DNA of 59,732 nt, the filler included, from Stramenopiles sp. TOSAG23-3 (taxonomy: Eukaryota): NCBI GenBank assembly GCA_900128585.1. It is 12 parts of 12 records of this genome, joined end to end, with 100 filler letters (N's around TTAATTAATTAA, not from the genome) between each part and the next. Parts side by side here need not be neighbours in the genome. Positions count along the whole stretch, not along the records: positions 10,025 to 14,932 come from LT643673.1; 11 more parts are not named here. One strand, written 5' to 3'. Below the pieces are notes generated by a model. It did no database searches. It saw only the letters and a program-made list of their open reading frames with translations, and was not told where the DNA came from. Below, piece by piece: positions 4,915 to 30,021 of this stretch. How positions within the stretch are numbered: the stretch's first letter is position 1; each line of letters opens with the position of its first letter. Position numbers and translations under genes: made by a program.

Positions 4915-5014
4915 NNNNNNNNNNNNNNNNNNNNNNNNNNNNNNNNNNNNNNNNNNNNTTAATTAATTAANNNNNNNNNNNNNNNNNNNNNNNNNNNNNN
5001 NNNNNNNNNNNNNN
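4915..5014. other. Artificial contig-joining spacer (N44-TTAATTAATTAA-N44). Identical spacers at 9925-10024, 14933-15032, 19932-20031, 24928-25027, 29922-30021, 34911-35010, 39882-39981, 44851-44950, 49818-49917, 54782-54881
   Basis: The same 100-bp linker, with stops in all six frames, recurs about every 5 kb and contig lengths decrease steadily. Internal scaffold gaps without the linker lie at 11436-11565, 12588-12599 and 16599-16664. Confidence 0.98.
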
Positions 5015-9849: not shown

Positions 9850-10024
9850 TATATTATTATTATTATTTGGTAATAATAATAAAAAAAGAGAAGATGACGA
9901 CAATACTACTATTATAATTGGGGGNNNNNNNNNNNNNNNNNNNNNNNNNNNNNNNNNNNNNNNNNNNNTTAATTAATTAANNNNNNNNNNNNNNNNNNNN
10001 NNNNNNNNNNNNNNNNNNNNNNNN

Positions 10025-10103
10025 AAAAATTTACCTTTTGTTATAATTAAGGTGTCGGCCCTTTCAACATTCATATTTCTCACTAATTAAAATATATCCT
10101 TCC
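10025..10103 (+). repeat. Left arm of a perfect 79-bp inverted repeat bounding contig 3
   Basis: Exact reverse complement of 14854-14932. Confidence 0.97.
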
Positions 10104-10546
10104 TTCTGAAAAAGACAATTATTCTTTACCCTTTATTATATACCCTACTTCTTTACTAGAAAGCAACGAAGTCCTTTTTTTTGCCTCGAAAAAGCTTAGT
10201 TTAGTTTTGGATCGATTTTTTCATAATTTAAATAATTAATATAAAAATAGCATTGTTTAAAAAGAAATTAATTTCTATTTTTGTTATCAATGGATCTGAT
10301 TGGTGGTGAAAAACGTATATAGAAATAGTATGTATGTATGAATCTAAATTTACGAAAGAAGCATTTAAACGAAAGAAAGGAATAAATTACTCAATTTGAG
10401 ATGAAAAGAATTTATATATGATTACATTCTGTTGAAAAAAGACAAATTCATTAATTCTTATTGACGTAACATAGTTAGGTTATTATTTATATTTCATTGT
10501 AAAACGAAATCTGGAGAAAACGCAAACAAATTTAATTGCAAAGAAA

Positions 10547-11935
10547 ATGCGTACGTTTGTATTGTTGTGCGCCGCGTTGGCTGTGCTCCAAACAGTCACT
10601 GCTATGACCGGCCCCCCACCGGGCTGGCCGGACAACAAAGAAGATTGCGAAAACATGGAAGGAGGATTTTGGCAAGAAGATCGTCACCGTTGTGAATCGG
10701 AAAGCATGTGTAACCATCTGGGAGGACGTTGGGACGCCAACCGATGCGAATTGGAAGAAGAAGGCGAATCGGACGGGCCGGACAACAAAGAAGATTGCGA
10801 AAACATGGAAGGAGGATTTTGGCAAGAAGATCGTCAACGCTGTGAAACGGAACTGTTGTGCAACGAACATGGAGGACAATGGACCGGAGTCCGATGCGAA
10901 TTTGAAGAAGGCCACCATTCGACTACGGCCTACCCAGGCCACCATTCGAGTACGGCCTACCCAGGCCACCATTCGAGTACGGCCTACCCAGGCCACCATT
11001 CGACTACATCAGAGCCCTACTACACACCATCTGAAAAGTGCGCTAAATCCGGAGGTATTTGGCGTTGGGATGGCCCTGATGGATGGTGCGACCATAGTGG
11101 CACGAGTCACGCAACGACTGCCGCACCACACCACCATTCGACTACGATCTCTTACTGGGAACAAAGAGCACGCGAGTGTACCATGCACGGAGGAAAATGG
11201 CATTGGCACGGCGCCGATTATGGAATTTGTGAACACAGTGCAACAACTACGGCAAACCCGAACGGTTACTGGGAACAAAGAGCACGCGAGTGTACCATGC
11301 ACGGAGGGAAATGGCATTGGGATGGCCATAATGGATATTGTGAACACAGTGCAACAACTACGGCAAACCCGAACTCTTACTGGGAACAAAGAAAACACGA
11401 ATGTGATTCATCCGGAGGAAGTTGGCATTGGGATGNNNNNNNNNNNNNNNNNNNNNNNNNNNNNNNNNNNNNNNNNNNNNNNNNNNNNNNNNNNNNNNNN
11501 NNNNNNNNNNNNNNNNNNNNNNNNNNNNNNNNNNNNNNNNNNNNNNNNNNNNNNNNNNNNNNNNNAAAACACGAATGTGATTCATCCGGAGGAAGTTGGC
11601 ATTGGGATGGCCATCAAGGATGGTGCGACCACCATTCGACGACTGCCCACCCAGGCCACCATTGGACTACACCGTACCCAGGGCACACCGGCCACCATAC
11701 GACGACTGCCCACCCAGGCCACCATTCGACCACAGCCTACCCCCATACCACCACAGAACACTATGGCAACGATTGCATAGGAGATCAATGCTGCGGCGAC
11801 GGGACACAGTTTGAGAATGGAGTTTGTGTACCGACGTACGAGGGTGTCATGGACGCATGCCGCGAGGAACGCAAGGAATGGGGATGGACATGCGAAACAT
11901 CTTGCCCAGCAGACGGAGCGAACGGCGACATTTAA
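10547..11935 (+). CDS. Secreted His/Trp/Cys/Thr-rich repeat protein (CxxxGGxW modules); assembly gap at 11436-11565
   Basis: Signal peptide MRTFVLLCAALAVLQTVTA, two ~50-aa units, HHSTTAYPG units, 38-aa YWEQR..EC...GG.WHW units and a Cys-rich C-terminus. Confidence 0.85.
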   Translation: MRTFVLLCAALAVLQTVTAMTGPPPGWPDNKEDCENMEGGFWQEDRHRCESESMCNHLGGRWDANRCELEEEGESDGPDNKEDCENMEGGFWQEDRQRCETELLCNEHGGQWTGVRCEFEEGHHSTTAYPGHHSSTAYPGHHSSTAYPGHHSTTSEPYYTPSEKCAKSGGIWRWDGPDGWCDHSGTSHATTAAPHHHSTTISYWEQRARECTMHGGKWHWHGADYGICEHSATTTANPNGYWEQRARECTMHGGKWHWDGHNGYCEHSATTTANPNSYWEQRKHECDSSGGSWHWDXXXXXXXXXXXXXXXXXXXXXXXXXXXXXXXXXXXXXXXXXXXXKHECDSSGGSWHWDGHQGWCDHHSTTAHPGHHWTTPYPGHTGHHTTTAHPGHHSTTAYPHTTTEHYGNDCIGDQCCGDGTQFENGVCVPTYEGVMDACREERKEWGWTCETSCPADGANGDI

Positions 11936-12488
11936 AAACAATATGGCACATGAACAAATCGAGTTTGCAAAATCATGCACAGTTTACCAAAACGATGGTG
12001 GCATACCAAGGGTTGTTTTGCAAGAGTGGACTCTTTCGATAAAAAAAAAAGAAGAATTTAATTTCTGTAATTTAAACAAATTAATAATAATCCGATTTTA
12101 AATTTTTTGATTTTTTTACGACCGAAGTAGGATTAGGATAGGTATTTTTTGGACATTTATTATTAATTATTACTCCCTCCTTCTTTTTTTCCTTCTTCTT
12201 CTTCTTTTAGACGACTAGCACTGCAATAAGCCATACTACCAATTATATTATAGACACTATTATAATACTACACACCATCGCCAACAACCACCACAAATCT
12301 AGTTGAAATCTAGAAATCTTCTTGAAATAATTCAAACTACTGCAGACTCTCATAACTCATTCAACACAAGAACAAAATAGAAAGCATTCGAAACAATTAT
12401 GCGACAGAGGATTAATGTTCAAAGTCGCCGCCCGTGGACACTCTTAGACCCAGCGTATACAAGCTGGGTGCGGTACAGTTTAATAATC

Positions 12489-13780
12489 ATGTCGGCGAGC
12501 TCTACTTCGTCCTTGGTCTGCATCGCGCTGGCCTTGCAAACGGTCACCTTTGCGGCAGGGGTTACTTATAACTTTTCTGAGCTTGGCNNNNNNNNNNNNA
12601 CAAATCGCTTTCTAATTTGGCATCAGGAGACGTCCTTCTTTTCCCTAACACTACGTTTTACATGATGGGAGGCGTGAAGGCTGAGGGTTTGACGAACGTT
12701 ACGATTCAATTCGATGGGACAATTCTGTTTTCGAAGGATATGAAATCATGGCCGCGCGACGGCGCAACGACGAAAGCGCATGTGCACGAGTGCATGCATT
12801 TTATCTCTTGCGACCACATGACGTTTACGTCTTCCGGAAAGGGATTGATCGACGGCAACGGGGCAGTGTGGTGGGGCATTCCAGGGATTGGATATTTGGC
12901 CCGGCAAGAAAACCGACCGCGACTTCTGAACATAGAAAACGCAAAGCACAACCTTGTCGAAAATATTATTTTGAAGAATTCTCCATACTGGACGTTTTGG
13001 GCCCACGGTGTAGAATTCTTGGAGGTTCGAAATGTCGACATTTCTGCTCGGAGGACGGAGAGCGACGGCCACGGTATCATTGACCTTACAGCCTTTAACA
13101 CCGATGGCTTCGACGTTGCAGGGTCGTACGTTTGGATACACGATTGCACTGTTTGGAACCAGGACGATTGCGTTTGCGCCAAAGACGGCAGCCAGCACAT
13201 GTTGTTCGAAAGAATAAATGCCAGCGGACTTGGACTCACCATCGGAAGCATAGGTGGGTCTACTAACAAAAATATAACCTTTCGAGACATTTACATGCAC
13301 AAAACTTACAAAGGCGTTTACATGAAGTTTCGTGATTTGGACAATGGTGGAATAGTCGAAGATGTCCTGTACGAGAACATCGTCATGGACGAGCCCGAAC
13401 AGTGGGGCGTATGGATTGGCCCTGCACAGCAATCTGATTCTGACAATCTCTGCGCGGCGCACCCCTGCTCGATATGTTGGCCGGCCCTTCCAGAAAAGTT
13501 TGCGCCGTGCATGAGTGGAAGTGGTCGCTACAGAAACATTACATTGCGAAACATAACTATTCGCAATTCGAAGAAAAGTCCGGGCGTCATCATAGGAAAC
13601 ATGTCGACGCCCATGACAAACCTCACGTTTGACAATGTAAAGTTTGTAAACCCTGGGTCAAAACCATGGGGTTCGGACTATTACAGATGCAGCGGTGTTC
13701 AGAATGGAGTTGCGGTTGGAGACACGTGGCCCGTACCGAACTGTTTTAAGGACATGACAAATCGATCGCCATCGCCTTGA
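12489..13780 (+). CDS. Secreted GH28 (polygalacturonase-family) glycoside hydrolase; the frame break coincides with the 12-N gap
   Basis: Signal-like MSASSTSSLVCIALALQTVTFAA, then IDGNGAVWW, RPRLL, NSPYWT, FNTDGFD, NQDDC, GLTIGS and NITFRDI. Confidence 0.9.
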
Positions 13781-14067
13781 AGAGAAACAATGTAACAAGA
13801 GAACAAGTTTAAGAGAGCAGGAAATTTTAAAAATTTGTACTAACTTAAATAACAGCTTGCTTTTTAAATAATAGCCATTATGTGGTGTTTATATATCTTA
13901 CTTGTAACATACTTACTTTGTGTGTGCTGTGTGTTATTTTCAGATATTATGATATCATACGACTGTATTTTTATATCTAAAGGTTAAAGGCCACATTCTT
14001 ACATAATATTTTGCTCATTGTACACTCCTCCGTGAAACAAGAAATGTCTTTGGTTTTTTTTGAAAAA

Positions 14068-14817
14068 TTATCTGATTTGTTTTTGCATGTCTCCATCAAA
14101 CTCTAACGTATCAGTCAAACAAATTGACTCTCGGGTTATGTACAAACAGTTTCGACACCTAGGCTTTGGTATTCCTGTCATGATGTCAACGACTTTTAGT
14201 GTCAAATCTGTCAGTTTGCCATCTGCATTCAGGGTTTGATTAGCCACCTTGAACTCTGCACAAGTACCCCGCGGCCTGCCTTTCAAAAGGGATTTTCCCC
14301 AGATGGACTTGTGAATTTTTATTTTCTTGTACTGCCCACTCATTCCGTAGAAAATTCTATTCGCCCCTCTGTCGTACCCTATGGCAAGGGCTCTGATGCA
14401 ATCGTCGCGAGTCTCTTCGGCATTGCTTTTATCGATGATAAAATCTGCTCTACAGACACCTTTCTTGATCTGGTGTTTTTTCAAATTCTTCATTTTCTTC
14501 TTCTTTCTCTTCTTTGGGGCATCACCAGGCTGCAAACCCCCGTCGTCTTCTCGGCGACCCCGTTTGCACAGCAGTGGGTATTTCTTGTACGCGTTGCACA
14601 TCGCCACAGACAAAGCGTCTAGCGAGTTGGCAATACGAGAATAATTGTCGCCCCCCTCGTTCGTGGAAGAAGCCCGCAACAACGATTTCGTGACACCGAG
14701 GGACTCTCGAGCCAAATTTCGAAAGTCAATATTCAAAAGTTGGCGCTGCTTCTGCCGGTCGGACGCGACGTCCGAAGCAAGCGGGGTAGTATTCGGCGCT
14801 GGGACGGCCGCCGGCAT
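14068..14817 (-). CDS. Putative zinc-dependent deaminase (YwqJ-like toxin-type CDA fold) with a basic NLS
   Basis: C-terminal domain ...IFYGMSG...GTCAEFKVANQTL...TGIPKPRCRNC: a CAE plus CxxC Zn/Glu signature. PKKRKKKK lies upstream. The ATG is directly preceded by ttcacag, so this may be an exon. Confidence 0.65.
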   Translation of the reverse strand: MPAAVPAPNTTPLASDVASDRQKQRQLLNIDFRNLARESLGVTKSLLRASSTNEGGDNYSRIANSLDALSVAMCNAYKKYPLLCKRGRREDDGGLQPGDAPKKRKKKKMKNLKKHQIKKGVCRADFIIDKSNAEETRDDCIRALAIGYDRGANRIFYGMSGQYKKIKIHKSIWGKSLLKGRPRGTCAEFKVANQTLNADGKLTDLTLKVVDIMTGIPKPRCRNCLYITRESICLTDTLEFDGDMQKQIR

Positions 14818-14853
14818 CTGTGAAGAAGCATGGCTACACTCCGAGATGACAAC

Positions 14854-14932
14854 GGAAGGATATATTTTAATTAGTGAGAAATATGAATGTTGAAAGGGCC
14901 GACACCTTAATTATAACAAAAGGTAAATTTTT
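14854..14932 (-). repeat. Right arm of the 79-bp inverted repeat
   Basis: Exact reverse complement of 10025-10103. Confidence 0.97.
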
Positions 14933-15206
14933 NNNNNNNNNNNNNNNNNNNNNNNNNNNNNNNNNNNNNNNNNNNNTTAATTAATTAANNNNNNNNNNNN
15001 NNNNNNNNNNNNNNNNNNNNNNNNNNNNNNNNATCAGAATAAGAACAAGAGAGTGAGACAATATAAAAGAATTGAAAGTATGCGAAGAAAACGTCGATTG
15101 TTGCATCTTGACTATAACGTAGATTGAATACTTGATCCACGATATATTTTCTCGCTTTGTGGTTCTTTCATTTTTTCGGTTCAGTTTCCCTTTGATCAAA
15201 GTACAC

Positions 15207-16400
15207 ATGTTGCGTGAGGAGCCTGAGCAGTCCGGTGGTCGGGTGACAATAGGGTCTCGTCCAATTGGGCAAGACGCGGGGGGTGCAGGAGGGAAGAAGG
15301 GCAAGGCAAAGCTCTCAAAATCAAAAAAACGTATGCTGGCGTTTGCGCGAAAGAATAGGACGTACTGGCGTACTCGAGTGTCGTACATCGTAGCGAACAT
15401 TGTCATGTTAGTGTTGGTGTATACAACTGGCCATACCAGCCTTTGGCGGACGAACCGTACAACGCAGACGCAGGAATTGGTGACGGAGCATATCATTACC
15501 CAATTGTTGTTCGTCTTGTTTTCTTGGGTCGCCTACTTTTTGGTCCAAGGGTCGGATCCGGGGTCCGTATCGGACGAAATGACGCCCGACGAAGCCGTCG
15601 AGTTCAGCTCGGACGCTATTCGTGGCGACCCGTGGGACGACGACGAGTTCTTGGGGGACGGGACCGAAGACATTGACGCGGCGAAGCGGCACTTTGAGGA
15701 CATAGAGTCGGGCGATGCGGACGAAGGGGGGAAGCAAGGGGATGGCGGGGCGCGTGCGGACGATGTGGAGTTTGACATGTCGTTTCCCACCATGGACGAG
15801 GAGGGAGATGCCCTGATTCCCCGGGTCGAGACGAAGCACCCGAAGTTCCCGTACCGCACGATTTACTGCCGCCAAACGAGGCGGTGGGTTGCCACGTACG
15901 ATCATTACTGCGGCATGCTGTCGACGCCCATCGGGGAGAAAAACCATGCCCGGTTTTGGTTATTTTTGCAAATGCAGACGGTAACCCTGTGCTGGGCGAT
16001 CGGGATCGTTCACAGTGGGTTTCGGATATTCACGGGGGACAAAGGCTGGTGGGAGGTGAACGCGCACGCGTTCTTTACGGTCTTGATCCTCTACATCCTC
16101 CTTGCCTTTGTCGGTGGCCTGTACCTTTTCCATAGTTTCCTGGCCTGCTCGTGCATCACGACGTACGAGTTCATGCGGTCGGACCGGATCGATTACTTGA
16201 AAGGGACCCGGGACTTTGACTTGCCCTACAGCCGTGGGTTGGGTGGAAACTTGAAATTTTTCTTCTTCCAAGATGGTCTGCTTTACATTATTTTCAACCG
16301 AAAGTGGAAGCCTGAGAATTGGAAACTGCCGGGTAAAATCATCAGGGATGGGGACTGGCACGAGAACATATGGGAGAACAAATATTGGAGCTGCTGTTAA
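15207..16400 (+). CDS. DHHC-family S-acyltransferase (DHYC variant)
   Basis: Four TM segments, SDPG, YDHYC, IGEKNHARF and TTYE motifs, C-terminal WSCC. ATG at 15207. Confidence 0.9.
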   Translation: MLREEPEQSGGRVTIGSRPIGQDAGGAGGKKGKAKLSKSKKRMLAFARKNRTYWRTRVSYIVANIVMLVLVYTTGHTSLWRTNRTTQTQELVTEHIITQLLFVLFSWVAYFLVQGSDPGSVSDEMTPDEAVEFSSDAIRGDPWDDDEFLGDGTEDIDAAKRHFEDIESGDADEGGKQGDGGARADDVEFDMSFPTMDEEGDALIPRVETKHPKFPYRTIYCRQTRRWVATYDHYCGMLSTPIGEKNHARFWLFLQMQTVTLCWAIGIVHSGFRIFTGDKGWWEVNAHAFFTVLILYILLAFVGGLYLFHSFLACSCITTYEFMRSDRIDYLKGTRDFDLPYSRGLGGNLKFFFFQDGLLYIIFNRKWKPENWKLPGKIIRDGDWHENIWENKYWSCC

Positions 16401-29374: not shown

Positions 29375-30021
29375 TCGACTCTTTCTTTCTTTCTTTCTTT
29401 CTTTCTTTCGTCTGCCGTCTATTAAATTATTTTTTATTAAATAATTAAATATTTTTTCGTTCTTCTTCTTCTTCTTTCTTTCTTTCGTTCTTCTCCCAAC
29501 TAATAACTACAGTACCAGGTATTACTATACATATTACATTATAATCTAACTAACGAAGGAAGAAGCGCAACAAACAATAAAAATAAAAATAATAATAAAA
29601 TTATTAATAAAAATAATAAAAAAGAAAACGAGCAACTAAAATATATTTAAATACTAATCAACACACACACACACACTTTAACCATCATGAACAACAAAGA
29701 AAAGAGCAGGCATTGGTAGAATTGAGACCACTCGACTTTAGAACATTTTTGCCTTTCATTTGCATTAGAGTACATTTTACAACAGGTACTACCTATCAAC
29801 CAACCAACCAACCAGCATGCGAGTGGGGCTGGTTTGGTGGTGCGTGTACGCCTGGGCCGGGCTTCTGGGTGCCTTGGTCCTGTGCGACCCCGCGGCGGGG
29901 GCCCCCCCCCCCCCCCCCCCCNNNNNNNNNNNNNNNNNNNNNNNNNNNNNNNNNNNNNNNNNNNNTTAATTAATTAANNNNNNNNNNNNNNNNNNNNNNN
30001 NNNNNNNNNNNNNNNNNNNNN

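Follow-up and report, generated by a model that had tools for sequence, protein, structure and literature searches.

The 59,732-base stretch of DNA from Stramenopiles sp. TOSAG23-3 analyzed here (hereafter, the window; assembly GCA_900128585.1) encodes, on the minus strand at positions 14068-14817, an uninterrupted 249-amino-acid protein, P0001. There is little doubt, in our view, that P0001 has the deaminase fold, belongs to the YwqJ clade and retains an intact active site, and we lean towards the view that it is a polynucleotide cytidine deaminase in which a lysine-rich loop serves nuclear import, substrate binding or both. Together with its homologs, P0001 apparently represents a conserved family of intronless marine-protist YwqJ-clade genes that we have not found described: a full-text literature search, which did not extend to the supplementary tables of the 2011 and 2012 surveys, returned no account of protist members of this clade or of such an insert. 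The features of the gene and its predicted product are the following (pLDDT is the predicted local distance difference test score of the AlphaFold2 model):

14068..14817, minus strand: intronless open reading frame (ORF) for the YwqJ-clade deaminase family member P0001, 249 codons plus stop
14566..14775, minus strand: N-terminal helical hairpin, residues 15-84, formed by an additional helix (15-49) together with helix 1 of the fold (56-78, then 81-84); pLDDT mostly 94-98
within 14566..14775, minus strand: conserved SDRxxQR and AYxxYPLLCxR motifs
14398..14562, minus strand: low-confidence insert between helix 1 and strand 1, residues 86-140, probably disordered; pLDDT 41-61 over residues 91-140; length varies in the family
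14494..14517, minus strand: PKKRKKKK, residues 101-108, a lysine/arginine run inside the insert
14341..14391, minus strand: strand 1-strand 2 hairpin, residues 143-159 (model strands 143-149 and 154-159)
14263..14340, minus strand: insert that separates helix 2 from strand 2, with the invariant H169 (14311-14313), WGKSL and GRPRG
14254..14262, minus strand: C186-A187-E188, where helix 2 (187-197) starts; predicted to supply the first zinc ligand and the catalytic glutamate
14185..14205, minus strand: strand 3, residues 205-211, followed by a 9-residue insert and then CxxC
14146..14163, minus strand: P-R-C221-R-N-C224, where helix 3 (222-227) starts; C221 and C224 are the predicted second and third zinc ligands
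14068..14145, minus strand: short C-terminal tail, residues 225-249 and stop, with helix 3, a short strand and the family motif L.FDG..K; no helix 4 or strand 5

The original prediction, made from the sequence alone, described a toxin-type deaminase domain in this ORF and placed its motifs exactly: the PKKRKKKK block, the hairpin ALAIGYD..NRIFYGMSG (residues 143-161), the CAE triplet within GTCAEF, and PRCRNC (residues 219-224). The AlphaFold2 model, built with a 42-sequence alignment (mean pLDDT 80.4; predicted template modelling score 0.75), consists of helices 15-49, 56-78, 81-84, 187-197 and 222-227, strands 143-149, 154-159 and 205-211, and a short strand at 232-233. It reproduces the core order of the deaminase superfamily, helix 1-strand 1-strand 2-helix 2-strand 3-helix 3-strand 4 around a central sheet, along with the superfamily signature, namely [H/C]xE where helix 2 begins and CxxC where helix 3 begins. 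All 33 Foldseek matches listed from the PDB are deaminases acting on cytidine, deoxycytidine monophosphate (dCMP) or tRNA adenosine (TadA/ADAT2), or APOBEC3H, the best of them with an E-value of 0.041 and a probability of 0.97. Among the 293 Foldseek candidates realigned with VIA-align, 26 chains reached Z>=8, headed by the blasticidin-S deaminase 3oj6_C (Z 8.7, root-mean-square deviation 4.0, 114 aligned residues, spanning model residues 57-247), with mycobacterial cytidine deaminases also at the top. A structural search independent of Foldseek, against 48,161 representative chains, returned mostly generic helical hairpins on residues ~1-105 and is uninformative on the origin of that part; the beta core is spanned by only 3 of the 50 rows listed, all three of them deaminases (Z 8.3, 7.5 and 7.5). 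The deaminase fold expected from the sequence is thus supported by Foldseek matches that, as listed, include only deaminases, and by a predicted model that fits the cytidine deaminase-type fold.

The domain boundaries, in contrast, differ from those proposed originally, namely, a C-terminal domain of ~110 residues with a nuclear localization signal in front of it. Because the alignments with deaminases start at model residues 57-64 and end at 243-248, helix 56-78 is to be regarded as the first helix of the fold, and the lysine-rich segment 86-140 is hence an insert within the domain, which spans residues 57-247 in the structural alignments, rather than a tail preceding it. Helix 15-49 is, in the model, an addition to the deaminase fold. 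C186, C221 and C224, placed at the starts of helices 2 and 3, would together hold a zinc ion.

P0001 belongs to a family with a single common plan. A word-indexed search yielded 24 relatives at E<=0.01 among 510 candidates, one of which is 99% identical to P0001 and the others 28-62%; a phmmer search against 1.84 billion representatives yielded 39 matches at E<=1e-3, 12 of them at E<=1e-30. The source names attached to some members point to a protein of a MAST-4 stramenopile, to Paulinella micropora in EukProt, and to an MMETSP transcript labelled as complete; P0002 and the gene in the window are one and the same. The members are 239-417 amino acids long and share the order of SDRxxQR, AYxxYPLLCxR, a variable low-complexity stretch with a lysine run, and the catalytic core, IHxSIWGKSL.GRPRGTCAEF...PKPRCRNC...L.FDG. 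Many aligned members start directly with M-S-D-R-E, and in all 29 that combine the N-terminal motif with the catalytic one, the two occur in one order. Across the 42 aligned relatives, eukaryotic and bacterial, C186, E188 and C224 never vary, and conservation of C221 is 90% or higher; in the 25 eukaryotic sequences, H169, W173, G174, K175, S176, L177, R183, F189 and N193 are invariant as well. The genes of the relatives also appear to be intronless because their metagenomic tblastn matches are single unbroken segments; for example, the match in L002 covers residues 9-249. The exhaustive phmmer search detected no eukaryote-type member with a different N-terminal part, and a scan of viral contigs with the family alignment detected no relatives there.

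Two further cysteines, C84 (14566-14568, in YPLLC) and C140 (14398-14400, in C.R..A just before strand 1), flank the lysine-rich insert; C140 is at least 90% conserved and C84 is kept in most members. These residues may staple the insert or bind a second metal.

The clade assignment draws on a set of hallmarks. Table 1 of the 2011 survey of the superfamily (PMC3239186) gives for the YwqJ clade a Gx[CH]xE motif in helix 2, a histidine in the insert that separates helix 2 from strand 2, an insert between strand 3 and CxxC, and frequent truncation after helix 3 or strand 4. In P0001, the motif is G184-T-C186-A-E188, with G184 nearly invariant in the family; 27 residues separate strand 154-159 from helix 2 (H187), and they include H169, which is invariant in 25 sequences and lies where the bacterial relatives have the motif IHP.L; strand 3 ends at residue 211, nine residues (MTGIPKPR plus one) before C221; and only 25 residues follow C224, with neither helix 4 nor strand 5 in the model. 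The presence of all four hallmarks, together with profile homology to toxin domains, bears out the earlier placement in a YwqJ-like clade with the CAE variant.

The homology to toxin domains is apparent from several searches. The distant phmmer matches are bacterial and include the C-terminus of a 1557-amino-acid RHS protein (P0089), a PAAR/prePAAR protein (P0096) and membrane-anchored proteins. Eight of the 15 phmmer matches that were scanned hit PF14431, at 16.6-25.1 bits, below the cut-off of 25.9; among the family members, 11 of 25 touch PF14431 below threshold at E<=10 (best 5e-4), more than any other Pfam family, and in a control the PF14431 model picks up B. subtilis. Three bacterial loci with a homologous domain were identified by scanning species genomes. 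In particular, a 639-amino-acid protein of Anabaena azotica (L018) ends in the domain (PF14431, 35.2 bits, above the cut-off), with a SUKH-3 immunity gene (100.9 bits) directly after it; the same pair of domain and SUKH-3 is present at a Coriobacteriales locus (L019, 418-amino-acid protein); and in an Actinomycetota locus (L020/L022) the domain lies at the end of a 3131-amino-acid frame. SUKH-type immunity is a recorded partner of YwqJ deaminases (PMC3239186). Profile-profile comparison (hhalign) of the eukaryotic family with 12 bacterial domains gives a probability of 99.7% and an E-value of 1.9e-25 over 96 columns that extend from strand 1 through strand 4, and BLASTP aligns P0001 itself with the Anabaena azotica protein at 33% identity over 91 columns (E 1e-10). 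In the top ESM Atlas clusters, PF14431 is present in 13-14% of the members, at a score of 0.88, which is below the 0.9 line and makes this a lead only.

The lysine run appears to be a eukaryotic feature of the loop between helix 1 and strand 1: at least four consecutive lysines or arginines are present there in 25 of the 29 eukaryotic members vs none of the 11 bacterial relatives, in which the two elements are joined by only a short link. The classical pattern of a monopartite nuclear-import signal is K-K/R-x-K/R in an exposed, disordered segment, and KKRKKKK at residues 102-108 fits it (pLDDT of the block 61 and 44). Retention of a basic motif within a low-confidence loop that otherwise varies freely makes a nuclear-import signal plausible, as far as the sequences go. 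The loop could equally well bind nucleic acid, given that AID/APOBEC enzymes touch their substrate with the loop at the same position of the fold; this is compatible with import.

The upstream end of the gene lies next to a contig end that is probably chimeric. The contig with the deaminase gene (10025-14932, 4908 bases) carries a perfect 79-nucleotide inverted repeat, 14854-14932 being the reverse complement of 10025-10103, so that the two copies form the two ends of the same contig:

14854..14932, no strand assigned: right arm of the inverted repeat (left arm 10025-10103), outside the deaminase gene; probably a chimeric contig end

Only 1 of the 12 contigs in the window has such an end-to-end repeat. 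The arm is probably, on the simplest reading, an inverted chimeric join at a 5-nucleotide overlap rather than a feature of the gene, because public contigs back the context of the left end and contradict that of the right end: in a contig from sequencing run X3, the 79-nucleotide repeat runs on into sequence from inside the left end of the window contig, whereas upstream of the deaminase gene the 99% identical metagenome contig L001 and two oligo-dT runs differ from the window, departing from it exactly at 14858. A biological terminal inverted repeat or mobile element was considered for the arm and rejected, given that L001 and the oligo-dT contigs leave at 14858 and the X3 contig places the 79 nucleotides at the other end.

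L001 contains an in-frame ATG 15 codons upstream of the ATG of the window; the window lacks this codon (14859-14862 region) because of the chimeric junction at 14858. Translation may start at the window ATG, at 14817, or at the upstream ATG seen in L001; the gene-caller models for the same gene are 250, 281 and 308 amino acids long. The lysine run in the window is one AAG (Lys) codon shorter than that in L001.

Among the sequencing runs listed, 19 from 11 studies contain part of the stretch, and 6 of these are recorded as RNA. Four runs were examined: X3 is metatranscriptomic, X7 and X13 are oligo-dT libraries, and X1 is RNA only by guess. Contigs of the ORF are present in all four, covering most of it in X1 and X3, about half in X7, and only the part from 14407 upstream in X13; in some RNA runs the stretch is partly uncovered, which is at most a weak hint. 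The contigs that cover the ORF in the metatranscriptomic and the two oligo-dT libraries, which come from three studies, contain no joints. The original prediction saw a possible splice acceptor right before the ATG. A 'cag' is indeed located there (14818/14817), but it is spanned by contigs from X3 (14531-14835), X7 (14754-14858), X13 (14640-14858) and X1 (13991-14845), and the RNA-library contigs stay collinear with the DNA for at least 41 nucleotides across it, thereafter matching L001; those from X7 and X13 leave the window at 14858 and continue with L001-matching letters. With contigs passing through the start codon without a joint, the RNA data give no support for upstream exons. The gene is apparently expressed, a hint that is strengthened by the transcriptome-derived relatives; RNA libraries may contain DNA, so that contigs in them are no proof of transcription.

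A depth spike at 14455-14564 (46-894, compared to ~3-7 elsewhere) was seen in all four runs. It stems from 31-nucleotide low-complexity AAG-rich contigs, probably of other organisms, and is no sign of high expression.

These observations largely refute the idea that P0001 is a Crinkler-like, secreted or translocated effector in which a swappable deaminase cassette is spliced onto, or exchanged among, different N-terminal parts, a scenario that we now find hardly credible. In its favor are the 'cag' before the ATG, the repeat arm 37 nucleotides upstream of the ATG, and the fact that the bacterial relatives are cassettes on varied delivery proteins. The arm, which had been taken as a sign of modularity, is a copy of the other end of the contig, and the library contigs run across the 'cag' without a joint. 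Moreover, the N-terminal helix 56-78 is part of the deaminase fold itself, the 29 members with both motifs display one architecture, and the phmmer search revealed no eukaryote-type relative with another N-terminus. Secretion finds no support in the N-termini either: none of the 29 members has a hydrophobic one, the highest 15-residue Kyte-Doolittle mean within the first 40 residues being 1.13, which is below a typical signal-peptide core.

Under the reading that we prefer, a YwqJ domain, of a clade known otherwise from the C-terminal parts of bacterial polymorphic toxins, would have been taken over by marine protists and kept unsecreted, without a delivery part or an immunity gene. With the zinc held by the three cysteines as predicted, E188 would shuttle protons to the zinc-bound water, which would attack C4 of cytosine, and the clade-typical H169 together with the family-invariant W173, K175 and R183, all in the insert that separates helix 2 from strand 2, could line the substrate pocket. 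Compared to the bacterial relatives, the eukaryotic proteins would have gained the extra N-terminal helix and the long, disordered insert, rich in lysine, that separates strand 1 from helix 1; this insert would serve nuclear import, binding of polynucleotides, or both. The best guess for the substrate, by analogy with the toxin domain of B. subtilis YwqJ, is cytosine in single-stranded DNA, and the role might be that of a nuclear C-to-U DNA deaminase in defense against viruses or mobile elements, or in programmed editing. The YwqJ toxin domain deaminates cytidine in single-stranded DNA with no 5' context preference and is barely active on double-stranded DNA; no activity was seen on the only RNA oligonucleotide assayed, an experiment that lacked an enzyme positive control (bioRxiv 10.64898/2026.09.29.755374).

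Several observations, in addition to the caveat on RNA libraries, weigh against this scenario at one level or another. On the structural side, none of the 293 Foldseek matches reaches E<=0.001, Z values of ~8 are middling by the aligner's own scale, and no PDB sequence matches P0001 significantly in phmmer or profile searches; because the Z values are middling, the fold call rests on the combination of these values with motif placement, the unanimity of the matches and sequence homology. At the sequence level, P0001 matches no Pfam family at E<=10 and nothing significantly in NCBIfam, so it is filed with YwqJ by its hallmarks and by transitive homology. The lysine run is absent from 4 of the 29 members (P0018, P0073, P0074 and P0076), of which P0018 has a basic C-terminus in its place, and the locus is known from a single 4.9-kb contig. 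As for function, the choice of substrate is pure analogy, and in the same preprint earlier screens of other YwqJ-family enzymes (<22% identity to YwqJ) are said to have found no activity on single- or double-stranded DNA (bioRxiv 10.64898/2026.09.29.755374). Finally, the strong conservation and the single architecture of the family resemble a housekeeping modification enzyme more than a gene engaged in an arms race.

This last point is the principal support for a different substrate, RNA, in which case P0001 would modify or edit transfer, ribosomal or messenger RNA (C-to-U or A-to-I), with the lysine-rich loop used for RNA binding or nucleolar retention. No fused forms are found among the 39 phmmer matches, as would fit such an enzyme, and the insert occupies the very loop that contacts the substrate in AID/APOBEC. 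Furthermore, the toxin-derived DYW clade edits RNA, as stated in the survey (PMC3239186). The inactivity of the YwqJ toxin domain on the lone RNA oligonucleotide, with the stated limit of that assay, counts against this possibility, as does the lack of any RNA-binding domain in P0001 in the Pfam scan; we consider an RNA deaminase possible, if on the whole unlikely. The most specific version of the DNA scenario, in which marine heterotrophic stramenopiles and other protists independently domesticated a YwqJ-type toxin acting on single-stranded DNA into a nuclear, APOBEC-like mutator for innate defense against DNA viruses or transposons, with a loop for import and DNA gripping inserted at the substrate-loop position, is doubtful. 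If true, such a nuclear mutator would be a second, unrelated eukaryotic invention of deaminase-based genome defense.

A deaminase of free nucleosides, nucleotides or other small molecules, of the cytidine or blasticidin-S type and involved in salvage or detoxification, is what the best structural matches would suggest, these being blasticidin-S and tetrameric cytidine deaminases (Z 8.7-8.0); the CxE motif is also that of the CDD/CDA group in the survey (PMC3239186). The sequence homology, however, is to SUKH-3-associated toxin domains rather than to cytidine deaminases; P0001 lacks the elements after strand 4 that complete the cytidine deaminase subunits, dCMP_cyt_deam_1 is touched by only 4 of the 25 members vs 11 for PF14431, and it is not obvious what a long disordered loop with a lysine run would do in small-molecule metabolism. 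Thus, this alternative appears improbable. Even less can be said for a catalytically dead or structural relic, or for bacterial contamination: the missing direct Pfam match, the highly fragmented assembly and the chimeric contig end are compatible with either, but the catalytic residues are kept in relatives from eukaryotes and bacteria alike, relatives at 28-62% identity have an intact ORF, matching contigs occur in oligo-dT libraries, and the neighbors are of the eukaryotic type. The composition argues in the same direction. The deaminase gene has a GC content of 0.48 and a third-position value (GC3) of 0.548, and the adjacent gene for a family 28 glycoside hydrolase (GH28) has 0.487 and 0.555; because these values match, there is no compositional sign of recent transfer. 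We regard a relic or a contaminant as very improbable. The polynucleotide cytidine deaminase is the reading towards which we lean.

Phylogenetic analysis of 20 eukaryotic and 18 bacterial cores (111 columns; P0097 was dropped by the motif filter) tells neither the donor nor the direction of transfer. The eukaryotic label changes twice on the tree, only one change being forced by the starred branches, and a single eukaryotic group is not rejected by the approximately unbiased test (p 0.326). The layout of a polymorphic toxin, with an N-terminal trafficking or repeat part and a SUKH-3 or Imm6 immunity gene next to it, is not recognizable at the locus: P0001 has no trafficking domain and there is no immunity gene on the contig, which ends just upstream of the gene. 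Two homologs, in L002 and L004, are surrounded by ordinary eukaryotic genes (purple acid phosphatase, WW-domain protein, GNAT, GH63), and no SUKH-3 gene was found beside them among the ORFs of at least 120 amino acids that were scanned. The neighborhoods in L002, L004 and the window are all different, so the genomic context gives no functional hint.

The metagenome loci L010-L017 form a separate group of stand-alone frames of ~160-185 amino acids with IHPEL and VCAEFHV.N motifs, on a very long tree branch (length 4.08).

The window consists of 12 contigs in order of decreasing length (4,914 to 4,851 bases), with N44-TTAATTAATTAA-N44 spacers between them (at 4915-5014, 9925-10024, 14933-15032 and so on). 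Because it is a chain of separate contigs, gene adjacency across the spacers is meaningless; accordingly, the DHHC gene, like anything past 14932, lies on another contig and is not a neighbor of the deaminase gene. No second copy of the deaminase gene is present in the window, to which the paralog search was confined, tblastn giving one copy. The other features of interest are:

10475-11935, plus strand: Cys/His/Thr-rich tandem-repeat ORF with a signal-peptide-like start and repeat units of 27, 111 and 150 nucleotides
12602-13780, plus strand: GH28 glycoside hydrolase gene of the polygalacturonase type, 119.8 bits; it and the deaminase gene converge
15123-16400, plus strand: DHHC-family palmitoyltransferase ORF on a different contig, 66 bits; its catalytic motif translates as DHYC

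The tandem-repeat ORF, on the same contig as the deaminase gene, is broken by a 130-N gap; its product looks like a secreted mucin-like or adhesive protein. Homopolymer contig ends at 29902-29921 and 54882-54902 (~20 C or ~21 G) look like library or assembly artefacts.

The family described here adds to the YwqJ clade a conserved, apparently expressed group of protist proteins whose distinct build includes an additional helix and, within the fold, a lysine-rich insert. If P0001 is an active nuclear DNA or RNA deaminase, it would imply deaminase-based defense or editing in uncultured marine grazers, provide an example of a toxin tamed without an immunity protein, and supply a compact enzyme, adapted to eukaryotes, with which base-editing deaminases could be compared.

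Among the known systems, the likeness to B. subtilis YwqJ (PF14431), which is delivered by an LXG type VII secretion system (T7SSb), consists in shared hallmarks and in the PF14431 matches of family members. YwqJ uses HxE and P0001 CxE, the clade having both according to the survey table (PMC3239186). YwqJ is the tip of a secreted toxin accompanied by the immunity gene ywqK, whereas P0001 has no delivery part, and there is no immunity gene on its contig or beside the two homologs; P0001 also differs by the extra N-terminal helix and the 55-residue lysine-rich insert. The bacterial SUKH-3-type domains (L018, L019, L020/L022, P0089 and P0096) are homologous to P0001 from strand 1 to strand 4 and share the motifs IH..L, (G/N)xCAEF..N..L, DL, PKP.C.NC and VLTD-like; unlike P0001, they end at strand 4, have a short link between helix 1 and strand 1 with no lysine run (0 of 11), and are located at the C-termini of large delivery proteins, followed by SUKH-3. 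The blasticidin-S and tetrameric cytidine deaminases (PDB 3oj6, 1wn6, 4wif and 4f3w; Z 8.7-8.2 over 104-114 aligned residues) belong, with their CxE, to the same C-terminal-hairpin division of the superfamily, as classified in the survey (PMC3239186); at 12-19% identity, they show no sequence-level match, and P0001 lacks the last elements of their fold and contains two inserts.

The likeness to AID/APOBEC is limited to the proposed mode of action, that is, zinc-dependent deamination of cytidine in polynucleotides within a eukaryotic cell. P0001 is not a member of that group: APOBEC3H appears only at rank 49 of the Foldseek matches (E 0.9), and AID/APOBEC, although likewise of toxin ancestry, are placed by the survey in another division of the superfamily, the helix-4 division with HxE (PMC3239186). 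Closer in kind are the YwqJ-clade deaminases of basidiomycetes (for example, Laccaria bicolor), the only eukaryotes listed for this clade in the text of the 2011 survey (PMC3239186); they are also a eukaryotic offshoot of the same toxin clade, in a lineage other than that of the MAST-4 stramenopile and Paulinella relatives of P0001. Eukaryotes are known to have recruited deaminases from bacterial toxin systems several times, AID/APOBEC and DYW being among the examples.

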